64,000 bases of DNA from Spirochaetia bacterium (GCA_965140585.1 OZ223269.1:512001-576000); one strand, 5' to 3'; counted from the first letter of the stretch, positions 4,386 to 17,477 are shown. Notes: generated by a model not told the origin, from the sequence alone. Translations and numbers: made by a program.

Positions 4386-5552
4386 TTAAACCTTCGTAGC
4401 TATAAACTGCCTGTATTTCTTTAAATCTGTCCTGAACGCTATTGTAGAACTGCCCGTTTCTTTTTCCGCCTTCGAAAGGGCTACCTTTGCTTCATGAATC
4501 ATCCGCTCCTCGTTGAGAAGCCGTCCATTACGCGAAGTAAGGCCTGCGAATATTTTAAAAGCTGATTTCGGAAATCGATTCTGTATACTTTTTTTGAAGC
4601 GTTCTACATCGGTATGACCTTCATCTATATCCTTGTCAGGAATAATAATACAAAAATCGCTGCTGCCGTATTCAAATGCAAGATCCTTGTAATTGAAATG
4701 TTCTATGATAAGTTCGGAAATATTTCTGTAGGGTATGAATCCTGATGGACTCTTTATGCTTATAAAAGTTAAGCAGGCATCCTGATCAAATGAAGCTGCT
4801 CTTTTAAGTTCAGCGGAGAGGCGTTCAGGAAGAAGATGTTCCCATACAAGACCGCTTTTTGGAGAGAATAAACTGCCTGTATCTTCTTTCGGCCTGGAAT
4901 CAGAGACCGCTGCTGCCTGGGGATCAACCCTTTCATCAGCAGGGTCTTCATTATTATCGGGAGAAGAATCTTCGTTATAAGGTTTGTCATTTGTGGTAAC
5001 TGCAGCATTTCTGCTCCCGTTAATGCTGAGAAAGATACCGGTTACAAGAAGAAAAAGTACAGCAAGAACAAGTGAATTTCTTAAGACCGGAAGTATTGAT
5101 GAGCGGGTAAAAGTATTTACTACTATTGTCAAAAAAAGATCGCTTGAAGGAACTGATAATTTAACAGATCTTTGAGTAAAGAAAGGGTTGTAGAGATTGA
5201 AATCAGGCTGCCCATTCCATCCAGAAATATCTGAAGGATCTGAGTTTAAAATCTTCTTGTCATAGATATTGAAATATACAGGTCCTTCGAGTTTGCTGTA
5301 GATAATTAACCCCGATAATTCAGAATAACTGCTCATTATCTCTCGTACACGCTGACTGAACCCGCTTCCTGAAAAGCCTTTCGAAAGCGAATATGAAACT
5401 TCAGCATCTTTCTGCAGAACATTGATGATTTCAGCAGCTGATGTATCACCGTTTTTCTTGAATCCATCTATCGAGTACCATATGTAGCCTGCAAGAGCTA
5501 TAAAAAATATCAAACTTACCGCAAAATATATTTTAACCGATGTTTTAACCAT
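4386..5552 (-). CDS. Membrane protein with periplasmic domain and degenerate GGDEF-like domain
   Basis: Two TM segments. The C-terminal region RLSAELKRAASFDQD..DLAFEYGSSDFCIIIPD has a GGDEF fold pattern with GSSDF in place of GGDEF. Confidence 0.7.
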   Translation of the reverse strand: MVKTSVKIYFAVSLIFFIALAGYIWYSIDGFKKNGDTSAAEIINVLQKDAEVSYSLSKGFSGSGFSQRVREIMSSYSELSGLIIYSKLEGPVYFNIYDKKILNSDPSDISGWNGQPDFNLYNPFFTQRSVKLSVPSSDLFLTIVVNTFTRSSILPVLRNSLVLAVLFLLVTGIFLSINGSRNAAVTTNDKPYNEDSSPDNNEDPADERVDPQAAAVSDSRPKEDTGSLFSPKSGLVWEHLLPERLSAELKRAASFDQDACLTFISIKSPSGFIPYRNISELIIEHFNYKDLAFEYGSSDFCIIIPDKDIDEGHTDVERFKKSIQNRFPKSAFKIFAGLTSRNGRLLNEERMIHEAKVALSKAEKETGSSTIAFRTDLKKYRQFIATKV

Positions 5553-5619: not shown

Positions 5620-6444
5620 ATGTCCATACGCTACAGGAAGCTTCCAGAAGGCTGGTACCCTTCCCGAAGTGCTGATATCAAAAAAATGATAGATAATTGG
5701 ACCGAAGGGGTCGAGTATGATGAAACGTCTCATGCTGCAGTTGTTCCCCATGCAGGATGGTATTTTTCAGGAAGAACAGCTGCAAATACTTTAAAACAGC
5801 TGTGTTCTAATAAGGATGTTATAGCTGTAATTGGCGGACATTTACCGCCGGGTAATTCGATACTTGCTGCTTCTGAAGATTATTTTGAATTGCCGGATAA
5901 TGGAAAAGCTGTAAATGCAGCAGATGTTCTCGGTCTTTTAAAAAAAGAACTCTCTATCAAAGAAGATGTTTATACTGATAACACTGTTGAGGTTCTACTG
6001 CCTATGATAAATCAACTGGCTCCGGAGGCAGAGATACTTTGGCTTCGTGCACCTTCAGATTCAAAAAGTATTATTTTGGCTGAAAAACTGAAAAAACTTT
6101 TTACTGAACAGGAAATTTCAGGTGCTGTAGTCGGCTCTACGGACCTGTCTCACTATGGCCCTAACTACGGTTTTGCGCCTATGGATTCGCTGAATGACCC
6201 GGTAGGGTGGGTAAAAAAAGTAAATGATCAAAGAATAATAGATGCGATGATAAGCATGAGACCTGAAAATATTTTGAATACCGCATTAAATGAGTCATCT
6301 GCATGCTCTCCGGGAGCGGCGGCAGCAGCAGCAGTATTTGCAGGCCTGTCAAATATTAAATCAGGTAAGCTTGTTGAATATACCAGCAGCTATGATATTC
6401 AGCCATCAAGATCCTTCGTAGGTTATGCAGGTATTATTTATTAA
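5620..6444 (+). CDS. amrB: MEMO1 family protein (AmmeMemoRadiSam system protein B)
   Basis: GWYP, VPHAGWYFSG, STDLSHYG, SACSPG and SFVGYAGIIY motifs. Confidence 0.9.
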   Translation: MSIRYRKLPEGWYPSRSADIKKMIDNWTEGVEYDETSHAAVVPHAGWYFSGRTAANTLKQLCSNKDVIAVIGGHLPPGNSILAASEDYFELPDNGKAVNAADVLGLLKKELSIKEDVYTDNTVEVLLPMINQLAPEAEILWLRAPSDSKSIILAEKLKKLFTEQEISGAVVGSTDLSHYGPNYGFAPMDSLNDPVGWVKKVNDQRIIDAMISMRPENILNTALNESSACSPGAAAAAAVFAGLSNIKSGKLVEYTSSYDIQPSRSFVGYAGIIY

Positions 6445-8098
6445 GATAAATCCCTGTAGCTTCAAGAGCCCAAAGCCTGACCTTTCTCAGTATCTCCGAG
6501 GATGAAAAATTACTGTTTCGGTATTTTTTTCGGTAAACTGCAGCAATAGGGAAAAGTGTCGTCCATATATCGGTTACAGTAAAATCCAGCATAGAAAAAT
6601 ATAATGAAAGCGGTTCTGCGGGTTCAGGCAGATCAAGAATTTTTTTTCTGTAGTTCTCCAGAAAGTCGTACCAGCTGGATCTGCTTTTGCCGGCTGAAAA
6701 AAAACTGGTAAAATTTGATGTATGTTTATTCGGATTCTGAATTATTTCGAGTTTTTCACCCTGTCCGGGAACCGGAATAATCCTGCCTCTGACATTTGCA
6801 GAAAACTTTTCAAGCCTTTCTCGGTAACTGAGCATCGGTCTGGTTGTATAGCGAAAACCGTAATCGGTTTTAACTAGATTTATGTTCTCATTGCGGTGCA
6901 GAAAATTATAGAAATTGGAATCAATTCCTGATGTCCGTACTGCTCTGCTCCCGAAATAAGGATAGATATATGTACCTCTTGCATATGATTTACCTTCCGG
7001 ATAAGAGAAATCTGTTCCATAGAGGTAAATCTCTGCAGCACCAAGAGAGTCTGCAAGCGATAGTGCCGCATGGGTAACATTTCCGCCGGATGTATCGATA
7101 AAGGGGAACTGTCTCCAATTACGGTTAATGTATTTTGAAAAAGGATGTCCGCTTGTAAAGAAAAAGGTTTTATCTGTAAGCCTTGTAAGAAATGAAGGTG
7201 ACGCAAGATCCAATACCAATGGTACATCCTCGGGGTATCCGGCCATAAAGTGATGATAAGTTATCTGCTGGCAATCTATCGAAATTACCAGGTCCGGTTT
7301 TATTGAGTGACTCATTAGACTGGGCAGTGCAGTATCAGTTGAAATTAAAAAGCTTTCTTTTCTTCTTTTAATCAGATCATCAAGCTGAATATCAAGAGAT
7401 GGTCCGGCAGCCGCTATCAGAACTTTTTTTGCCGGTGGAATTATAGTTGTTGAATTTTGCGCTGCCTCTAGATTGGCCAGCGAATTAATAAACCATTTTT
7501 TGCCGAACCAGGTCTGGACAGTATAATCATCAGAAAGCGCATCAAGAATATCCTTGATGGAATCACCTATTTCATTGAAATAATTTTTTTCAGTTTCGAC
7601 CCTTGACCGTAGATATATTGTCTGGAAATCTCCCATTACGGCAGGAAGATAACTGGATAGAAGAAATTCTTTTATAGACTCTATTGTTTCATCAATGAGA
7701 ATGGTTATTCTTGCATCGGATAGTATATCTGAAAGATCAATTGATAACAGGATTGCTTTTAAAACAGTTATATCCTTGTCGATAATCAGGATCCCGTTGA
7801 TATCGTTACGTTCTAAAAGTCCCTTAATATGATAACAGGCACCCATACCGAAAATAACTATGTATCCTCCTCCGTGTACGGATTCTGAATAACGTTTTCC
7901 TTCTTTTATCGGATCGAAGAGACTATGCAGAGCAAAATCTCTTCCGTTATATTTAATCATAGGAACAAGCAGGCCGGTTCTTGAATCCTTAAATTCGGTG
8001 TTAACAGATTTAGCACAATTTGATAATCTTACCGACAGTTCCTTGTGGCGCAGTGAGAGTGATAATAGATTTCGTTCGAACAATGAATTAGTTAACAT
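6434..8098 (-). CDS. Motility-associated factor (Maf/DUF115) glycosyltransferase family protein
   Basis: LHSLFDPIKEG, FGMG, AAAGPSL, STDTA, SIDCQ, SGGNVTH and GTDFSY motifs. Confidence 0.85.
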   Translation of the reverse strand: MLTNSLFERNLLSLSLRHKELSVRLSNCAKSVNTEFKDSRTGLLVPMIKYNGRDFALHSLFDPIKEGKRYSESVHGGGYIVIFGMGACYHIKGLLERNDINGILIIDKDITVLKAILLSIDLSDILSDARITILIDETIESIKEFLLSSYLPAVMGDFQTIYLRSRVETEKNYFNEIGDSIKDILDALSDDYTVQTWFGKKWFINSLANLEAAQNSTTIIPPAKKVLIAAAGPSLDIQLDDLIKRRKESFLISTDTALPSLMSHSIKPDLVISIDCQQITYHHFMAGYPEDVPLVLDLASPSFLTRLTDKTFFFTSGHPFSKYINRNWRQFPFIDTSGGNVTHAALSLADSLGAAEIYLYGTDFSYPEGKSYARGTYIYPYFGSRAVRTSGIDSNFYNFLHRNENINLVKTDYGFRYTTRPMLSYRERLEKFSANVRGRIIPVPGQGEKLEIIQNPNKHTSNFTSFFSAGKSRSSWYDFLENYRKKILDLPEPAEPLSLYFSMLDFTVTDIWTTLFPIAAVYRKKYRNSNFSSSEILRKVRLWALEATGIYLNK

Positions 8099-9644
8099 AT
8101 CTGCTTATTTTATTAATAAAGATTTCAGCTTCTTCTGCAAGATTATTACCCATTTCAGAGAGCCTGTCCACTGAAACTTTTTTATATCTGCTTTTGAGCT
8201 CAAGGAGTCCGGGTAAAAACAGATTAAAAAAAATGCTTTTATCAGGATTGGTTAATATTTCATCAAGAGATTTAGCAATGTCAGATTTCAATAATCTGAT
8301 TTCATTCCGGGGTTTTAATAAATACTCACAAATTTTAGAATTCCGTGTATCCGCGTCAGGATAATTTAATTTTTTGGTGAATGATATGTTTTTAACACTA
8401 TTTGCCGTTAAAGATAAAATTTGATTGTCATTTAAAGCTGTATAGCCTGGAGGTGCGCCTTTTTGAGGATTATGAAATAAAACTCTATTTGATAATCTTC
8501 TGCTGTTTGATGCAAACCATCCGTAGTAAGCTTCCATAGCGTGATTGCGTCTGTCGAATCCGTGACCGATTTTAGTACTGTCCGATGCATTTCGATTATA
8601 ATAGGTGTTATGAAGTGGATTTGTTCTTTCTGACGAACTCTCGATTATATTGTCAAAAGTGTGGGGACGGCAGTGAGCCTGTATATCAGAAGAACATAGA
8701 TCAAGACCGCAGAAAATAATGTATGAATTGCATATTGTACTTGAAAGATCTAATGCTGAACCGGCGACAGTACCATTAGAAGGTATGTTCAGGAAATTTG
8801 ATTCATGATTTAAAATTTCGTCTTCAAGAAAGTAATTCTGAGTGAAAATAACGTTTTTTGTTTGTGAAGTACCATTTTGCGCTCCGGTAAGTGGTGATGC
8901 AACCGGTATATCTAAATTACTTAAATGCAATGAGGCATAATACCCTGGATCGGTAGATATGATTAAATCAGGTTCTATATCATTATTAAGCAGACAGGAT
9001 ATTGAAGAGGGGAGTGCTGCAAGGAAAACTGATTTTCTGATGTTTTTTATAATATTTATACTCTCTGAAAGACCCGGTCCTGAAGCTGCAATTACAATCA
9101 AATCAGATTTTCCGGTAAGTTCAAATGTGTTTTCAGTTCTCCTGTAATTTTGAATAAAATTGGAAAACATTCTTTTACCAAATCCTGAAAGGGTCGTTAT
9201 GTTTCCATGAAGTTCACGAATATATTGACTTAGAATATTTTCAATGTAAGCAGTTTCTCGTTTGAAGATTTTGTCGGATGCTGTCCATTTGAGCAGTGAA
9301 AATCCCTCAATATCAAGTTCATTTAAAACTGATGACAGAAAAGTTTTGAGCGGTAAATCACTCTCTGCATTCCAGATAAAATCTGATTTATTATTGTCTT
9401 TCTCAGCAAAAATAGTGCATGCATAGAGTGATACAATTTTGATATTGTAAGAGCAGTATTTGCGTGCTTCATCAGCAATGTAATTCAATCCGGGACAGAT
9501 TAATACAACTGTTGTGCTATTGATTTTTAAATTTGATTTTACGAATCGATTTGCTTCTTTAACCGGGTCAAAACTGGAATGCAGAAAAAGACCGTTTATT
9601 TCAACAGTTTTCTTTCCTGATCTGCTTTCGAGGAAATTGTACAT
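8088..9644 (-). CDS. Second Maf/DUF115 family protein
   Basis: LHSSFDPVKEA, AASGPGL, STDPGY, PSNGTVAG, GLDL and QAHCRPH motifs. Confidence 0.8.
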   Translation of the reverse strand: MYNFLESRSGKKTVEINGLFLHSSFDPVKEANRFVKSNLKINSTTVVLICPGLNYIADEARKYCSYNIKIVSLYACTIFAEKDNNKSDFIWNAESDLPLKTFLSSVLNELDIEGFSLLKWTASDKIFKRETAYIENILSQYIRELHGNITTLSGFGKRMFSNFIQNYRRTENTFELTGKSDLIVIAASGPGLSESINIIKNIRKSVFLAALPSSISCLLNNDIEPDLIISTDPGYYASLHLSNLDIPVASPLTGAQNGTSQTKNVIFTQNYFLEDEILNHESNFLNIPSNGTVAGSALDLSSTICNSYIIFCGLDLCSSDIQAHCRPHTFDNIIESSSERTNPLHNTYYNRNASDSTKIGHGFDRRNHAMEAYYGWFASNSRRLSNRVLFHNPQKGAPPGYTALNDNQILSLTANSVKNISFTKKLNYPDADTRNSKICEYLLKPRNEIRLLKSDIAKSLDEILTNPDKSIFFNLFLPGLLELKSRYKKVSVDRLSEMGNNLAEEAEIFINKISRYVN

Positions 9645-9646
9645 TA

Positions 9647-11461
9647 TTAGTCGGCAAGATTTTTAATATGAGTATCAAGTTCTTCAGTATCTATGCCGGA
9701 CTGAAAAATTGAAACAATTGGAGGAGAATCTATATTGTTTTTATCAAAAACTGAATAAACTGCAGTTTTTATCTGATTTCTAAGGATGTCGGGAGTAACG
9801 CGTAAACCTGAAAAGAATCCTATAAAGAATCGATGGCCTCTGACCCTAAGAAAACAATCCTTATCAGTTGTCATTGAAAAAAGAAGTTTTGTAATATCCT
9901 TCTCAATATTAAATGTATCTACAAGTGAGTTGGATGATTCAAAAGATTTTATGATTCCTGAATAATCAATAAGTGTGAATTTAATTTCCTGATGGAGCTC
10001 AATTCCGTTTTTCTCATAGAAATCAATAACATTTGAAGTTATATCAGCAAAATCAATTGCAGGGAGGTTTCCGGCTGATGAAAGTTTTGCGATCCGATTA
10101 ATACGGTTTTTAAACATCATTTCGGATGTTTTTGAAATGAAGTAATAAGCTGCTTCCGGAAAATGACTGTCATGAAGTGCAGGTGAATCAAGAATTATCA
10201 TTATGCCGGAAAGTTTATCCTGATACATAAATACAAGAATATTAAAAGATTCTGTGATATCGAGCTGTCTTTTTGAAAAGAAATCGGTAAAAAGTGATTT
10301 TTCAAGATTTAAGAATATGGAATCACCATTCATTAGAATGTTTTTCTTTTTTAAAAAGTCAGAGCTGATCCTGCATCTTCTAAGGCTTGTCTGATCTATT
10401 CCTGTTGAAGCAAAAGGGTGAAGAATTTCTTTTTCTGAATCAAAGGTAAGCATTATACCTGACTTAATTAAAAAATATTCCCTGGCAGCTTTAAATATCT
10501 CAGCGGGAAGTTCAAGGCTTCCTGATAGATTTCTTACAATAGTTCTAAGTTTGTCATGATCATAGAGCCATTTAATATCAGAATTCAGGATATCTGAAGG
10601 AAGAGTTCCGGGTGAGGAATTGGTTTTTTTTTCCGGCAGTTCATCTATACTTAGAAGATTGTCGCCGTTTTCATTTTTTGTTTTAAAATTTAATGAGGGA
10701 AGTTCCTCAATATCGTCATCAGAATCATCAGCTCCGGGAAGTTCTTCAAGATCTTCAAGATCATCAAGACCGTCCAGATCAGAGACATCTTCATCAGGTT
10801 CTTCTTCAACTTCTGAAGGTGAGGGGAGAAGGTCATCGTTAAAATCAGGAGAATCAATCTCAACAATAGAATCATCATCTTCAAGATCGTCAATTTCTTC
10901 GAGATCAGAAAAATCTTCATCTATTTCTATGACAGGTTCATCGATTGAAATTTCAATATCCTCAGTAATCTCTTCGACATTGTCCTCTTCATCATCGAAG
11001 GCTTCTTCAAGCTCTGTAATCTCAGAATCATCTTCAAAATCATCGGTCTCTTCTATCACTTCAACAGATTCATCTTCAGGAAAATCTTCTTCTAATTCAA
11101 TAACCTCTTCAGGTTCTTCAGTAACCTCTTCGATTTCTTCGATTACCTCTTCGAGTTCTTCAATATCGCTGTCATCGAAAGGAGCTTCCTCAATTTCTGT
11201 AAGTTCTGTATCCTCTGGTTCAGATGTGATTGTTTCTTCTGTATCTAAATTGAATTCATCCTCTTCAACTTCTTCGATTAAATCGTCAACATTTTCATCA
11301 AAATCATCCCCGTTAATAGGAACAAGATCTTCTATATCATCATTAATACCTGCTTCTTCATGATATTCACCGGAGTCCAGTTTGATATCTTCAATTGAAT
11401 CACTGACGTTTAAAAGCAGAGCCCTGCCGAGCAGGCCGGACTTATTAGTTTGAACATCCAT
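9647..11461 (-). CDS. Hypothetical protein: acidic low-complexity N-half, possible GAF-like and degenerate GGDEF-like C-half
   Basis: 604 aa ORF whose start overlaps the upstream stop at 11461. Residues ~20-260 are Asp/Glu-rich and the C-terminal half is globular. Confidence 0.7.
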   Translation of the reverse strand: MDVQTNKSGLLGRALLLNVSDSIEDIKLDSGEYHEEAGINDDIEDLVPINGDDFDENVDDLIEEVEEDEFNLDTEETITSEPEDTELTEIEEAPFDDSDIEELEEVIEEIEEVTEEPEEVIELEEDFPEDESVEVIEETDDFEDDSEITELEEAFDDEEDNVEEITEDIEISIDEPVIEIDEDFSDLEEIDDLEDDDSIVEIDSPDFNDDLLPSPSEVEEEPDEDVSDLDGLDDLEDLEELPGADDSDDDIEELPSLNFKTKNENGDNLLSIDELPEKKTNSSPGTLPSDILNSDIKWLYDHDKLRTIVRNLSGSLELPAEIFKAAREYFLIKSGIMLTFDSEKEILHPFASTGIDQTSLRRCRISSDFLKKKNILMNGDSIFLNLEKSLFTDFFSKRQLDITESFNILVFMYQDKLSGIMIILDSPALHDSHFPEAAYYFISKTSEMMFKNRINRIAKLSSAGNLPAIDFADITSNVIDFYEKNGIELHQEIKFTLIDYSGIIKSFESSNSLVDTFNIEKDITKLLFSMTTDKDCFLRVRGHRFFIGFFSGLRVTPDILRNQIKTAVYSVFDKNNIDSPPIVSIFQSGIDTEELDTHIKNLAD

Positions 11462-14283
11462 TATGATTTAAGTCCCAGTTCCTCAAAAAGTTTTTTATAA
11501 ACCTCGAAATGCTCAGATTTGGCAAATTCAGTAATCTTATCATCAGGAAGAGATTCAAGCAGGTGGTCCATATATGAGAGTACTGATTTTATATCATCTC
11601 TGAGATCTTCAGGTATGGAGGCGATGGTGTCATCATCAACAGCGGATATTTCAGAGATGTCTGATGCATTTTCTTCCGATTCAACTGATTCCGGAGCGGG
11701 ATCTTCCGGGGGGAGTTCTTCTATCGGTGAAACATCACTGTCATCAGTCTCCAGTTCTTCGTCGAATGAAATCTCATCAAAAGGCTCGTCTTCTATAGAA
11801 ACACCTGAGGATTCTTCACTTACAGATTCATCAGGATGTTCAAGCTCGTCAAGGCCTTCGATTTCAATCATCGAATCATCAGGCTCAGAGTCAATTGCAA
11901 ATTTTTCACCATCAAGCTCAATCTCGTCAGTAAGGTTTGTTTCCTCTTCTGGAATTTCGAGGGTAGTTGTACCGACTTCTATATCTGCAAAGCTTTCATC
12001 TTCATCCTCAAAAGAAAGCTCGTCAAGGTTAATATCATCAGTTGGTTCTTCAGACGGTTCCCCGATATCAGAGATTTCACTGTCTTCAAAAGAGAGTTCA
12101 TCGAGGTTGATTTCAGTATCTTCCTCGAGGTTTATAGCCTCGCCGTTGAGTTCTATAGCAGATTCATCAAGCTCTAATTCAGTGTCGTCGAGTTCAAGTT
12201 CGGTATCTTCAAGCTCTAATTCAGTATCTTCAAGCTCTAATTCAGTGTCGTCGAGTTCAAGTTCGGTATCTTCGAGCTCTAATTCAGTATCTTCAAGCTC
12301 TAATTCAGTATCTTCAAGCTCTAATTCAGTATCTTCGAGTTCTAATTCAGTGTCTTCAAGCTCTAATTCAGTGTCTTCAAGCTCTAATTCAGTGTCTTCA
12401 AGCTCTAATTCAGTATCATCGAGTTCAAGTTCGGTATCTTCGAGTTCTAATTCAGTGTCGTCGAGTTCAAGTTCGGTATCTTCAAGCTCTAATTCAGTAT
12501 CTTCAAGCTCTAATTCAGTATCTTCAAGCTCTAATTCAGTGTCTTCAAGCTCTAATTCAGTATCTTCGAGTTCTAATTCAGTATCTTCGAGTTCATCATC
12601 AAGTATGATCTCACCGTCATTAAGTTCAGCAGCAACTTCATCAAGATTCAGCTCTTCATCTTCCTGTGAGGTTTCTATATCCTCCAGAAAGAGATCGTCA
12701 TCGATTTCCAGTTCCTCTTCTTCAAGTTCGATATCGTTATCAAGATTAAGTTCGTCATCATCAATTTGAACACCTATTTCAGACAAATCAAGCTCTTCTT
12801 CAGCAGCGGCGGGTTCTTCAGTTGTTTCAACGTTTTCTAAAATTGTATTATCACTTGTAATAAGACCTTCTTCTTCCAGATTGAGGTCATTAAGATCGAT
12901 TTCTTCAGTTTCAGGTTCTTCAAGAACTATATCATCAAGATCAATGTCATCAGGAACATCTGTAATAATGTCGTCAGAAAAACTGACGGAAGAGGGTTCG
13001 TCACTTTCTTCTTCATTGATGTCAAAATCATCCATTTCAAGATCTTCAACTGAGGAAAGGTCAATTTCCTCATCATGGATAATCTCAAGTTCTTTTTCGT
13101 CAAGCTGAGACTCATCCGGCATTTCATCTGTATATCCGGAATCTGAAACTGACTCTTCAGGGATTTCAGTTACGTCAAATCCCGAAAGTAATTCTTCGGT
13201 GTCATCCTGGTTGAAAGTGTCATCAGCGGATGGGATGTCTTCGTTAAGAAGTGATTCTACATCGGTATCTGTTATTTCCTCTGAAGTAAAGGGTTCTTCA
13301 GGTTCCGCATCAAGATCCAGACCGCTGATTGAGTCAAGGTCAATATCTTCTATATTATCAAGTGAATCATCTGCCACTGTCTCGGTATGTGAATCATATG
13401 ATTCTTCAGGGGCTTCAGTTTCCTGTCCGCTTTCTTCTGTGATATCAGCTGTGTTAAGAATATTATCAAGCTCATCGCCTGTCAGCGCTATTGTTTCATC
13501 TTCATCTTCTTCGAAAAATCCGCCTGTCTCATCCGATTCAGCCGCAGAAGCTCCGGGAGCGGATTTGATAGTTGAAAGTTCTGATTTAAGGTCAGTAAGT
13601 TCCTTTTTAATAGAAAGAAGTTCTTCTTCTATCTTCATGAGAATCGATTTTGAACTTACAGATTCAAGTTCGTCAGCAGATGAGACTGTTTCACTCAATT
13701 CTGACATGCTTCCTGAAAGGTCATCTTCAATATTTGTTAAATCAGCTTCAAGAGCGTCAAGATCGTTAAATTCTGTATCAGTATCAGTTTCTATTTCAGG
13801 TTCTTCCATATCGAGTTCAGGAAGCTCGATATCAGGTCCTTCCAATGTGAAAGTGTCTTCGTCAATAACAGAGGCTTCGTCATCAGCTGTCGGAATGGTA
13901 TCATCTATATCGTCAAATGAGAAATCTTCATCATCGTCAATACCCGCTTCAATTTCGGACATCTCATCCTCTAAAGAGCTTAGAAGATTTTCTTCTTCGT
14001 CAGTCAGCAGGTCGTGTTCTTCTTCGTAATCTGCATCCTCATCTTCATCTTCTAAATTAAAATCGGAATCAAAATCTTCTTCAAAATCATCGCCTGAGAG
14101 ATCTTCAAGTACAAAATCTGAACTGTCGGTTTCATCCTCGGATTCATCGACGTCTACCGGGCCTGTTTTTACCCATACACCGTATTTTTCGAGTTCATCA
14201 TTGTCGTCTTCAAGTCCGGCTTGGATTTCGGTGTTGTCGTCTAAATCGTCAAAAGAAACATCCATATCATCAAAAGCGGCCAT
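11461..14283 (-). CDS. Very acidic 940 aa protein with 20x heptad repeat and helical C-terminal domain
   Basis: Long ORF with SD CAGGAG. Non-repetitive islands: YGVWVKTGP, a coiled coil followed by GGFFEEDEDETIALTGDELDNIL, and C-terminal DIKSVLSYMDHLLESLP..FEELGL. Confidence 0.85.
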   Translation of the reverse strand: MAAFDDMDVSFDDLDDNTEIQAGLEDDNDELEKYGVWVKTGPVDVDESEDETDSSDFVLEDLSGDDFEEDFDSDFNLEDEDEDADYEEEHDLLTDEEENLLSSLEDEMSEIEAGIDDDEDFSFDDIDDTIPTADDEASVIDEDTFTLEGPDIELPELDMEEPEIETDTDTEFNDLDALEADLTNIEDDLSGSMSELSETVSSADELESVSSKSILMKIEEELLSIKKELTDLKSELSTIKSAPGASAAESDETGGFFEEDEDETIALTGDELDNILNTADITEESGQETEAPEESYDSHTETVADDSLDNIEDIDLDSISGLDLDAEPEEPFTSEEITDTDVESLLNEDIPSADDTFNQDDTEELLSGFDVTEIPEESVSDSGYTDEMPDESQLDEKELEIIHDEEIDLSSVEDLEMDDFDINEEESDEPSSVSFSDDIITDVPDDIDLDDIVLEEPETEEIDLNDLNLEEEGLITSDNTILENVETTEEPAAAEEELDLSEIGVQIDDDELNLDNDIELEEEELEIDDDLFLEDIETSQEDEELNLDEVAAELNDGEIILDDELEDTELELEDTELELEDTELELEDTELELEDTELELEDTELELDDTELELEDTELELDDTELELEDTELELEDTELELEDTELELEDTELELEDTELELEDTELELEDTELELDDTELELEDTELELEDTELELDDTELELDESAIELNGEAINLEEDTEINLDELSFEDSEISDIGEPSEEPTDDINLDELSFEDEDESFADIEVGTTTLEIPEEETNLTDEIELDGEKFAIDSEPDDSMIEIEGLDELEHPDESVSEESSGVSIEDEPFDEISFDEELETDDSDVSPIEELPPEDPAPESVESEENASDISEISAVDDDTIASIPEDLRDDIKSVLSYMDHLLESLPDDKITEFAKSEHFEVYKKLFEELGLKS
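12169..12588. repeat. Coding tandem repeat, 20 x 21 bp, encoding (E/D)DTELEL
   Basis: Contiguous units with consensus aagctctaattcagtatcttc on the + strand. Unit differences are synonymous or D/E only. Confidence 0.97.
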
Positions 14284-14315
14284 TCTTTACTCCTGAATAC
14301 AAAACGCTGTAATTA

Positions 14316-14343
14316 TTATCGGCAAGAAAAACGTATTAATAAA
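14316..14343 (-). promoter_or_regulatory. Putative sigma28 (FliA) promoter
   Basis: Perfect GCCGATAA at 14323-14316, 32 nt upstream of the ATG at 14283. The -35 region is imperfect (TTAT/TTTA at 15-16 nt). Confidence 0.65.
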
Positions 14344-14427
14344 TTATAATACACAATATATAAAATAAGAAAGCAGGTTTAAGCGATAAGACTTAAGAAA
14401 GATGTAAAACAATCCGTAATAACTAAT

Positions 14428-16490: not shown

Positions 16491-16568
16491 GTGCTGATTT
16501 TACCTGATTCATTGTTTATTGAACAGATCCTTTACACCTTAAAATTGATCTGGTATTTTGAAAGCTGG

Positions 16569-17477
16569 ATGAATAAAGAAATGAATCAAGTATTAAATCT
16601 GGATTTTCAGCCTCCTGCCGCAGAAAGGCTGCTGCTTCTCCCTTCGGAACTTTCGTATCATGGTATTTCAGAAATTATTATCAGGCTTCTGGATAATTTC
16701 CCATGGACTTTTGAATCCAGACTGCTGTCCTGCGGTACTTTGCCGGAAGAAGTTATGGGGCATCTTGTAAAGCTTTTAGATAAGCAGGGGATATCTTTTT
16801 CACTTATGTTTCCGGGAGCTTCAGATCTTGGAAGACTTTTAAGAATTCCCGGTTACCGCCGGATGTTCCGGAAAGAAGAGAATATTCTAACTATCAATCC
16901 TGAAGCTACAGGTTTTAAGCGGTTTATGGATGATGTTCTTGAAGATATCACAGCTCTCTGTGAGAACATATCATCATTTTATCTCCTTGAATCAGAGGCA
17001 TCAGAGCATCCTGAATACCATGCGGCTGTAGCGGAAATTATAGGTGAATATGATATTGCGCTGAGGATTCTAAAAAATGATTGTGTTATGAGTCCCTTTG
17101 AACAATTTTGCAGCAGAGGTTCACTTGGTTTCTCCGGAAAAGAGGTTCCGGCTGGTTACATTCAGTCTTTCAAAAATTTTGAAGACGGACGTAAAAAAAT
17201 TGCACTGCTTTCCTCAGAGCTTCGATATCTTATCTCGATAGACGCCGCAGGGGTACGCTGTATTACACCGGAGGGGAAGAATATTTCAATGCTGTATAGA
17301 GAAATGGACAGGGCAATTCAGCAGTTGAGTAAAATATCTGAGGAACTAACCGATTCAGGCTCCGGTTTTGCTGATATTCACTGGCTTGAAGCATATTCAC
17401 GTTCAGTTCTTAAAAGCTGCGAAGAAGATTACCTGCAGTCGGGGATACGGCTGTCTCAATGCGGCCTCATTTCATAG
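16569..17477 (+). CDS. Hypothetical protein
   Basis: Long ORF. The ATG at 16569 is preferred over the GTG at 16491, which would leave no room for the divergent promoter. Confidence 0.65.
   Translation: MNKEMNQVLNLDFQPPAAERLLLLPSELSYHGISEIIIRLLDNFPWTFESRLLSCGTLPEEVMGHLVKLLDKQGISFSLMFPGASDLGRLLRIPGYRRMFRKEENILTINPEATGFKRFMDDVLEDITALCENISSFYLLESEASEHPEYHAAVAEIIGEYDIALRILKNDCVMSPFEQFCSRGSLGFSGKEVPAGYIQSFKNFEDGRKKIALLSSELRYLISIDAAGVRCITPEGKNISMLYREMDRAIQQLSKISEELTDSGSGFADIHWLEAYSRSVLKSCEEDYLQSGIRLSQCGLIS

Follow-up and report, generated by a model that had tools for sequence, protein, structure and literature searches.

Motility is a virulence determinant of pathogenic spirochaetes and, therefore, a gene module that appears to serve their flagella is of basic interest. 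The module described here is an operon of four minus-strand genes, located at positions 6434 to 14343 of a 64,000-nucleotide stretch of DNA from a Spirochaetia bacterium (GCA_965140585.1, OZ223269.1:512001-576000; hereafter, the window). Two of its genes encode paralogues of the Maf flagellin glycosyltransferases, and the two others encode an extremely acidic, disordered protein and a sensor-like protein.

The closest described systems are the Maf loci of other bacteria, in which two paralogues, Maf-1 and Maf-2, can be found side by side. In Shewanella, Maf-2 is reported to need a small, helical, cis-encoded accessory factor, GlfM, to bind flagellin (bioRxiv 10.1101/2023.12.03.569772), which offers a precedent for helical accessory proteins encoded beside maf genes. 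In Treponema denticola, the glycosylation of the flagellin FlaB with nonulosonic acid is described as essential for filament assembly and motility (PMC13439194). The text of that paper contains neither 'Maf' nor 'glycosyltransferase', that of the related paper PMC9481697 contains 'glycosyl' once, in a cited title, and neither of them names a transferase gene or an accessory factor for spirochaete FlaB glycosylation. The operon of the window supplies four candidate genes for this process, two of which are without known function. It is read here, on balance and with appreciable room for error, as a late-flagellar operon of sigma-28 type, in which an adaptor-sensor pair (genes 1 and 2) is joined to two Maf paralogues (genes 3 and 4), the adaptor coordinating flagellin processing or export. 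The four genes are as follows.

11461..14283, minus strand: gene 1 (P0001), 940 amino acids (aa), polyacidic disordered protein of the TP_0179 family
9647..11461, minus strand: gene 2 (P0002), 604 aa, with an N-terminal GLLxRA motif, an acidic linker, a GAF domain and a degenerate GGDEF-like domain
8088..9644, minus strand: gene 3 (P0003), 518 aa, MafA-type MptE-like paralogue
6434..8098, minus strand: gene 4 (P0004), 554 aa, MafB-type, MptE-like plus Maf_flag10_N

A first-pass annotation, made from the sequence of the window alone, had proposed four tightly coupled genes forming one operon. The table of open reading frames (ORFs) bears out the tandem arrangement and all three junctions: genes 1 and 2 overlap by 1 bp, genes 2 and 3 are separated by 2 bp, and genes 3 and 4 overlap by 11 bp. 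Internal promoters and terminators occur at chance level (28 vs 24.8 expected and 6 vs 5.5 expected, respectively), and the four genes recur together as a conserved unit in related loci. Taken together, the gene order data support one real operon, conserved across Spirochaetia.

The annotation of the two distal genes as Maf also holds. Both products exceed the gathering score of the MptE-like family PF01973 (70.6 bits for P0003 and 100.5 bits for P0004, vs 34.6). P0004, the product of the most conserved of the four genes, additionally carries the Maf N-terminal domain Maf_flag10_N (PF20157, 25.1 bits vs a cut-off of 23.5) and matches the solved Maf structure 5mu5 over residues 75-372 (E 9.8e-8). 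P0003 is the more diverged paralogue, with no Maf N-terminal domain detectable by Pfam and no match in a PDB sequence search. The two paralogues stand next to each other, like Maf-1 and Maf-2 in other bacteria. Nevertheless, the locus departs from described Maf systems: its putative Maf genes are not part of any flagellar or sugar-biosynthesis island, their partners in the operon are two proteins that are absent from described Maf loci, and P0003 has no detectable N-terminal domain. GlfM is an 89-aa four-helix bundle, whereas the helical element of protein 1 is a predicted three-helix domain of about 50 aa that ends a 940-aa acidic chain. Elsewhere in the genome, there are three FlaB-type flagellin genes and NeuB-type synthases (two above the cut-off plus a weak one). 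Maf homologs are present in 287 of the 301 phylum genomes that are at least 90% complete (E <= 1e-10), including family f50. The products of genes 3 and 4 are likely to transfer nonulosonic-acid sugars onto FlaB in the cytoplasm, before its export.

Synteny with maf, a check that the first-pass annotation had suggested, is strong within the class. The same four genes stand in the same order in 11 loci fetched from relatives. When species-representative genomes are scanned with the last 60 residues of P0001, at least 484 loci are confirmed; the counts given below rest on 80 of the confirmed ones, which are all titled spirochaetes (80/80, including Spirochaeta, Alkalispirochaeta, Treponema and Sediminispirochaeta). 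The gene-1 ORF is found in 76 of these 80 loci. Where at least 3.5 kb of downstream sequence is available, a MafA-type ORF follows within 2.5 kb on the same strand in every case (59/59), and MafA is followed by MafB in 50 of the 53 loci for which the downstream sequence extends to 5.2 kb or more. In 62/70 loci, gene 1 and MafA are separated by a gene-2 homolog; it is missing in eight loci titled Treponema or Spirochaetaceae, and in L068 and L083 the stop of gene 1 abuts the start of MafA. In a 1.1-Mb genome of class Spirochaetia (G127), the gene-1 homolog is located at 197.8 kb and is followed by the gene-2, MafA and MafB homologs, 197.8 kb being the position that papers give for TP0179. Judged by position, the four operon genes correspond to TP0179 and the next three genes of the syphilis agent. 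TP0179 appears in PMC8789261 and PMC6602244 only as a hypothetical protein with a recombinant segment, and none of the titles and abstracts listed for TP0176-TP0178 describes a functional study. The literature searches made likewise brought up no functional study of the operon.

The upstream region of gene 1 carries the following elements.

14340..14343, minus strand: -35-like element TTTA, 16 nt before GCCGATAA (ortholog consensus TTAA/TCAA, from a motif-anchored comparison of 37 upstream regions)
14316..14323, minus strand: -10 element GCCGATAA of a sigma-28-type promoter, conserved in position in orthologs
14290..14294, minus strand: Shine-Dalgarno sequence AGGAG of gene 1, 7 nt before the ATG

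The perfect GCCGATAA that had been reported at the head of the operon is indeed present (14323-14316), 33 nt from the ATG of gene 1 (14283). The octamer alone means little, with 296 occurrences in the 4.85-Mb genome vs about 134 predicted by composition; what matters is whether its position is conserved. A GCCGA[TA]A-like element is found 30-40 nt before the start in all of the first eight orthologous loci (other genera and families). On a larger scale, [GA]CCGATA stands 40-150 nt before the YGVWVK codon in 37/59 loci, vs 2% expected from the motif density of the loci themselves; the nominal binomial P of 5e-48 is overstated, because the loci are related to one another. Alignment of the upstream regions on the -10 element shows divergent flanks, the one exception being a TTAA/TCAA/TAAA block that precedes the element by 16 nt, giving the bipartite consensus TTAA-N16-GCCGATA. 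This architecture agrees with the sigma-28 promoter of T. denticola flaB2, experimentally mapped to a -35 TTAA and a -10 CCGATAA (PMC9481697). The genome also encodes fliA, whose product is above the TIGR02479 cut-off. The sigma-28 assignment of the operon, first made from the window alone, is thus supported by comparison.

Two further observations concern the use of this promoter type. A genome-wide sigma-28 regulon drawn from strict GCCGATA[AT] matches was tried and rejected as uninformative: 581 such sites exist in the genome, only 30 of them intergenic, and 14 were scanned, taken from 16 intergenic sites with a downstream gene after excluding the operon's own site and one duplicate. In addition, many loci show a TATAAT/TATACA-like block just upstream of the -35 element, where the window has TATTATAAT (14344-14363); this block may represent a second promoter, of sigma-70 type, and hence dual control.

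Protein 1 is made of a few short conserved elements set in a highly variable acidic chain.

14152..14196, minus strand: island A, LEKYGVWVKTGPVDV, residues 30-44, specific to class Spirochaetia
13966..14010, minus strand: island B, LLTDEEENLLSSLED, residues 92-106, consensus LTxEEExLLxxLE
13564..13647, minus strand: heptad-like helical island, SILMKIEEELLSIKKELTDLKSELSTIK, residues 213-240, consensus LLxIKxELxxLK
13399..13524, minus strand: island C, GFFEEDEDETIALTGDELDNILNTADITEE, residues 254-295, the most conserved linear motif, phylum-wide
12167..12588, minus strand: lineage-specific tandem array, 21-nt period x 20.1, 20 DTELELE units
11467..11637, minus strand: C-terminal domain predicted as three helices, residues 883-939, assigned through its relatives to Pfam PF27359 (TP_0179)

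Among its 940 residues, 396 are aspartate or glutamate (D+E) and 17 are lysine or arginine (K+R), for a net charge of -379. The first-pass annotation had seen neither a transmembrane segment nor a signal peptide, and this still stands: the highest 19-residue hydropathy is only 0.29, which argues against a transmembrane segment, and the N-terminus, being acidic, does not look like a signal peptide. Its description of the islands as non-repetitive must be amended, however, as the protein also holds the 21-nt tandem array. With 20 DTELELE units in the window and 26 in a congener (L029), the array is of unstable length among closely related species, and the 58 other readable orthologs contain nothing comparable by way of an exact tandem run. 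Matches of P0001 to DUF748, TamB and SMC, which are far below the cut-offs and fall on the array, were rejected as compositional. Gene 1 orthologs encode 457-1278 aa (a single 178-aa ORF being excluded), with a median of 37% D+E and 3% K+R, and share almost only the short islands and the C-terminal 50 aa. The island A consensus, LExYGVWVKxGPED, is found in 59/62 orthologs, and a stretch resembling the heptad-like island also occurs in L043, its conservation being weakly sampled. The island C pattern, GFFxEDEDETIALTGDELDNILNTAEFTEE, is recovered by BLAST in 51/60 orthologs, in 1-4 copies, and across the phylum the copy number per protein ranges from 1 to 5. The residues I, L, E, L and I of IALTGDELDNIL are its invariant positions. 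A PDB sequence search with island C gives nothing significant.

The helical C-terminal domain announced by the first-pass annotation is confirmed at the level of prediction, AlphaFold2 giving three helices over the C-terminal 50 aa (mean predicted local distance difference test score, pLDDT, of 79, and about 90 in the core). Foldseek retrieves no solved fold with this domain at E <= 0.001, and a PDB sequence search gives nothing significant. A profile search, which had also been recommended, reveals a large spirochaete family: 2231 representatives (at 50% identity) at E <= 0.001, with the domain in C-terminal position in all 150 of those listed. PF27359.1 is recorded on 120/120 listed relatives, and TP_0179 is the name of the nearest Atlas clusters, which at a score of 0.83 is no more than a lead. 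The assignment of P0001 to PF27359 relies on these relatives and Atlas names: the C-terminus of P0001 has no match in the Pfam copy used, which seems to be without that model. All source names among the listed relatives read 'hypothetical protein', except for a single 'pilus assembly protein FimV', a label that probably follows composition only. The module, although uncharacterised, thus has an entry in Pfam. Hits to the domain come from 260/301 phylum genomes and 119/121 genera, and the two operon genes of no known function are retained in almost all the sampled spirochaete genera; the domain was not found in the seven genomes of family f26 (0/7, 1.0-1.8 Mb), weakly represented in family f50 (7/34), and single-copy in the source genome. 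The Treponema pallidum protein TP0179 has the same C-terminal domain, as judged by PF27359.1 on the relatives and by the Atlas names, but P0001 is longer (940 vs 627 aa), more acidic (42% vs 19% D+E), and bears the DTELELE array in addition.

Gene 2 encodes the following features.

11420..11440, minus strand: SGLLGRA, residues 8-14, counterpart of the N-terminal MGL[LR]x[KR]A of gene-2 homologs
10624..10632, minus strand: in-frame A9 run (GAA AAA AAA ACC; E-K-K) at the linker/GAF boundary
10082..10573, minus strand: GAF domain, residues 297-460, Z about 14
9653..10051, minus strand: GGDEF-like alpha/beta domain, residues 471-603, whose signature reads GHRFF, with no RxxD

The first-pass annotation spoke of two giant acidic proteins, which is right for protein 1 and only partly so for protein 2: residues 1-284 are acidic (44% D+E), whereas residues 285-604 constitute a folded two-domain module. 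Gene-2 homologs are usually 300-440 aa long and start with MGL[LR]x[KR]A, a motif kept phylum-wide. The 280-aa acidic insert of P0002 is a feature of this genus, with a similar one in the 700-750-aa homologs of family f45. From a 38-sequence alignment, the module is modelled with a pLDDT of 92 and a predicted template modelling score of 0.89. Its GAF fold (model residues 13-176) is supported by VIA (Z 13-14.5, root-mean-square deviation of about 3 A, 140-156 residues aligned) and by Foldseek matches to 5w10 and 3ci6. Over the whole module, Foldseek aligns 343 columns with the GAF-GGDEF protein 4zmu (Dcsbis) and 327 columns with PelD (4etz); the domains are oriented differently, which keeps the TM-scores low (about 0.3). 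Among the Atlas clusters, the nearest combine GAF with GGDEF or PelD_GGDEF (0.92-0.96), and hhalign gives weak support for a second domain of GGDEF type.

The comparison with PelD (4etz/4euv) and Dcsbis is one of architecture, residues 285-604 of protein 2 being modelled as a GAF domain with a putative GGDEF-type domain behind it. A degenerate cyclase motif is a feature that protein 2 shares with PelD: the active-site motif GG(D/E)EF is replaced by GHRFF in the window, and the residues at this position vary among relatives. Unlike PelD, protein 2 has no transmembrane helices, nor the conserved RxxD I-site that PelD uses to bind cyclic di-GMP. By those criteria, protein 2 is therefore neither a cyclase nor a PelD-type cyclic di-GMP receptor, and no ligand can be named for it. 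Protein 2 is read here as a sensor-like protein of the cytoplasm, in which a GAF domain precedes a GGDEF-like domain devoid of catalytic activity.

A word-indexed search with the C-terminal domain of protein 2 returns only the protein itself and a 93% relative, and it is whole-genome searches that reveal the family, the C-terminal module being found in 21/41 relative genomes. A phylum scan with profile A2 detects protein 2 in 56/301 genomes; its sensitivity is low for so fast-evolving a family, as a hidden Markov model search of gene-1-adjacent ORFs finds gene 2 where the scan missed it, and it is not used here as presence/absence data. The A-run at the linker/GAF boundary has counterparts in relatives: in all ten loci in which 240-360 nt separate gene 1 from the start of the gene-2 ORF, the gap contains an A10 or A12 run that splits gene 2 into two frames, and the short MGL... 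ORF ends shortly past the run where readable (L098, L100). The run looks slippage-prone, and is fixed in frame in the window.

The association between genes 1 and 2 extends beyond the class. Nine loci around PF27359 matches were fetched from other spirochaete classes. The next gene matches the gene-2 profile in six of them (L114, L115, L117, L118, L120 and L121) and carries a Pfam GGDEF match in two more (the syntenic distant homologs of L116, E 2.3e-7, and L124, E 1.1e-5, the latter with GAF matches as well), while the ninth (L119) is partly masked; the adjacency of the pair is, thus, seen in 8/9. Flagellar flanks are present in three of the nine: L117 and L118 have the order FliS-gene 1-gene 2-FapA, with fliS directly upstream of gene 1, and in L121, FliM is two genes downstream of gene 2. 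The fliS-to-fapA block runs on one strand in both L117 (6238-10233) and L118 (6425-11301), which belong to two other spirochaete families. Across genomes with coordinates for both genes, they are adjacent in 25/31, and lie on different contigs in the other six. Island C also occurs in the other-class loci, for example as IALSDSELDGIL and ISLSDDELENIL, in up to five copies. In a separate count of loci, island C tends to be present or missing along with gene 2 (both in 47 loci, neither in 5, discordant in 5). Since the pair stays adjacent without Maf, beside FliS/FapA or FliM, the ancient unit is the gene 1/gene 2 pair, which gene order marks as flagellum-linked rather than glycosylation-specific. 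On the same evidence, the most probable direct partner of protein 1 is protein 2.

The original proposal is that protein 1, together with protein 2, would act as a polar scaffold or condensate in the cytoplasm, comparable to HubP/FimV or PopZ, and gather the Maf enzymes at the periplasmic-flagellum base. Protein 1 does share with such hubs its long, extremely acidic, disordered regions with small conserved docking elements and a small terminal interaction domain; it is in one operon with Maf in Spirochaetia; and FapA, a family named for polar flagellar assembly, adjoins the pair in L117 and L118. The single FimV name among the relatives, given its probable origin in composition, could be added. 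However, searches of P0001 with Pfam and NCBIfam and its hydropathy profile reveal no LysM, FimV C-terminal or PopZ domain and no transmembrane or hydrophobic segment, and a charge of -379 with 17 basic residues would oppose self-association, unless counter-ions or basic partners intervene. In other classes, the pair is found beside FliS/FapA or FliM and no Maf gene adjoins it, which makes it unlikely that the acidic protein is a scaffold devoted to localising Maf. The polar scaffold idea is weakened as a Maf-specific mechanism, and the hub explanation as a whole is improbable.

Island C could suggest another function, in which proteins 1 and 2 would constitute a motor or chemotaxis regulatory module: island C (IALTGDELDNIL) would mimic the N-terminus of FliM that binds phosphorylated CheY, protein 1 would bind or buffer phosphorylated CheY or dock at the switch, and the Maf genes would have no more than the late promoter in common with them. 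By eye, island C and residues 5-14 of FliM (LSQDEIDQLL) both fit L-[ST]-x-D-E-[IL]-D-x-[LI]-L, the FliM N-terminus of the source genome reading MNEVLSQDEIDQLL. The 1-5 repeats of the island per protein, the FliM gene near the pair in L121, and the retention of the pair without Maf in other classes are all consistent with this. Yet the island-C profile (A3) does not retrieve FliM from the genome even at E <= 10, so that the likeness is not statistically supported; nor does it find any PDB chain of a CheY partner, and acidic helical motifs of this kind are common. A motor or chemotaxis module of this kind has, accordingly, little to recommend it.

The position of fliS directly upstream of gene 1 in L117 and L118 also raises the possibility that protein 1 is itself a FliS client or is exported late by the flagellar type III apparatus, acting as a periplasmic polyanion or as a regulator of export competition. 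The late-flagellar-type promoter and the disordered N-terminus without a signal peptide would suit such a substrate. Nevertheless, the translation of gene 1 appears coupled to that of a GAF protein and of enzymes that are cytoplasmic, the searches made show no resemblance to known substrates, and a 940-aa chain with a charge of -379 would be unusual cargo, all of which makes export of protein 1 a very slim prospect.

The adaptor-sensor reading accommodates these observations in two modules. The first, made of genes 1 and 2, is an ancient, phylum-wide pair linked to flagellar genes, and the second, made of genes 3 and 4, would provide the Maf paralogues that glycosylate FlaB with nonulosonic acids in the cytoplasm before export. 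Along the hypervariable acidic spacer of protein 1, islands A, B and C and the small three-helix end would serve as docking elements, making it a flexible, multivalent adaptor that holds protein 2, probably through island C. Other motifs, such as the three-helix domain, would hold a flagellar client, which may be Maf, FlaB or FliS. This arrangement would coordinate flagellin processing or export, and a small molecule detected by the GAF/GGDEF-like module might serve as the gating signal. We infer the physical contacts in this scheme from translational coupling, invariant adjacency and motif co-occurrence, and the ligand and the glycosylation role are to be taken as equally conditional. A more ambitious version holds that proteins 1 and 2 are an unrecognised, phylum-wide flagellar assembly factor, in which island C recruits the GAF/dead-GGDEF sensor, the three-helix end recruits Maf, FliS or FlaB, and a small-molecule signal gates the processing or export of filament subunits, a checkpoint without counterpart in externally flagellated bacteria; in this full form, it is rather doubtful. 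In either form, the operon offers a concrete example, open to experiment, of how a disordered polyanion that bears short docking motifs may operate next to a sensor-like protein when flagella are built. The Maf-free form of the pair flanked by FliS/FapA or FliM, the definition of island C with its phylum-wide reach, and the MGL motif of protein 2 are set out here.

Several observations weigh against the adaptor-sensor reading of a late-flagellar operon. On the promoter side, the -35 element of the window reads TTTA, which is neither TTAA nor TAAA; a chemotaxis gene (methyl-accepting chemotaxis protein, by Pfam) lies downstream of only one of the 14 scanned intergenic GCCGATA[AT] sites; and the upstream regions of all three flaB genes are without the canonical GCCGATAA. 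Within the window, no flagellar gene flanks the operon. None of the nine other-class loci has an adjacent Maf gene, so that proteins 1 and 2 need not be specific to glycosylation, and family f50 has Maf in 34/34 genomes but the PF27359 domain in only 7 of them. Phylogeny confounds the association of island C with gene 2, as its exceptions are concentrated in Treponema-labelled loci. Finally, the GGDEF-like domain of protein 2 has neither GG(D/E)EF nor a conserved RxxD I-site in alignment A2.

The surroundings of the operon complete the description. Upstream, gene 1 is separated by an intergenic gap of 144 bp from a divergent DivIC-like gene. At the other end, the stop region of P0004 (6434-6444) overlaps by 11 bp with the end of a convergent Memo-like gene (5620-6444, plus strand), and a terminator-like hairpin, looked for between the two, was not found. 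Two ORFs near the operon, at 4386-5552 (minus strand, 388 aa) and 16491-17477 (plus strand, 328 aa), have no Pfam match at E <= 0.001. The three flaB genes are located outside the window, at G000:C6:1244028 (plus strand), G000:C4:350543 (minus strand) and G000:C4:349468 (minus strand), and one of their upstream regions carries TAAA-N15-ACCGACCA. The leaders of all three contain paired AAGGA-type motifs, CAAGGATG... plus AAGGAGG at the ribosome-binding site, which resemble the CsrA-binding sites described for spirochaete flaB mRNAs.

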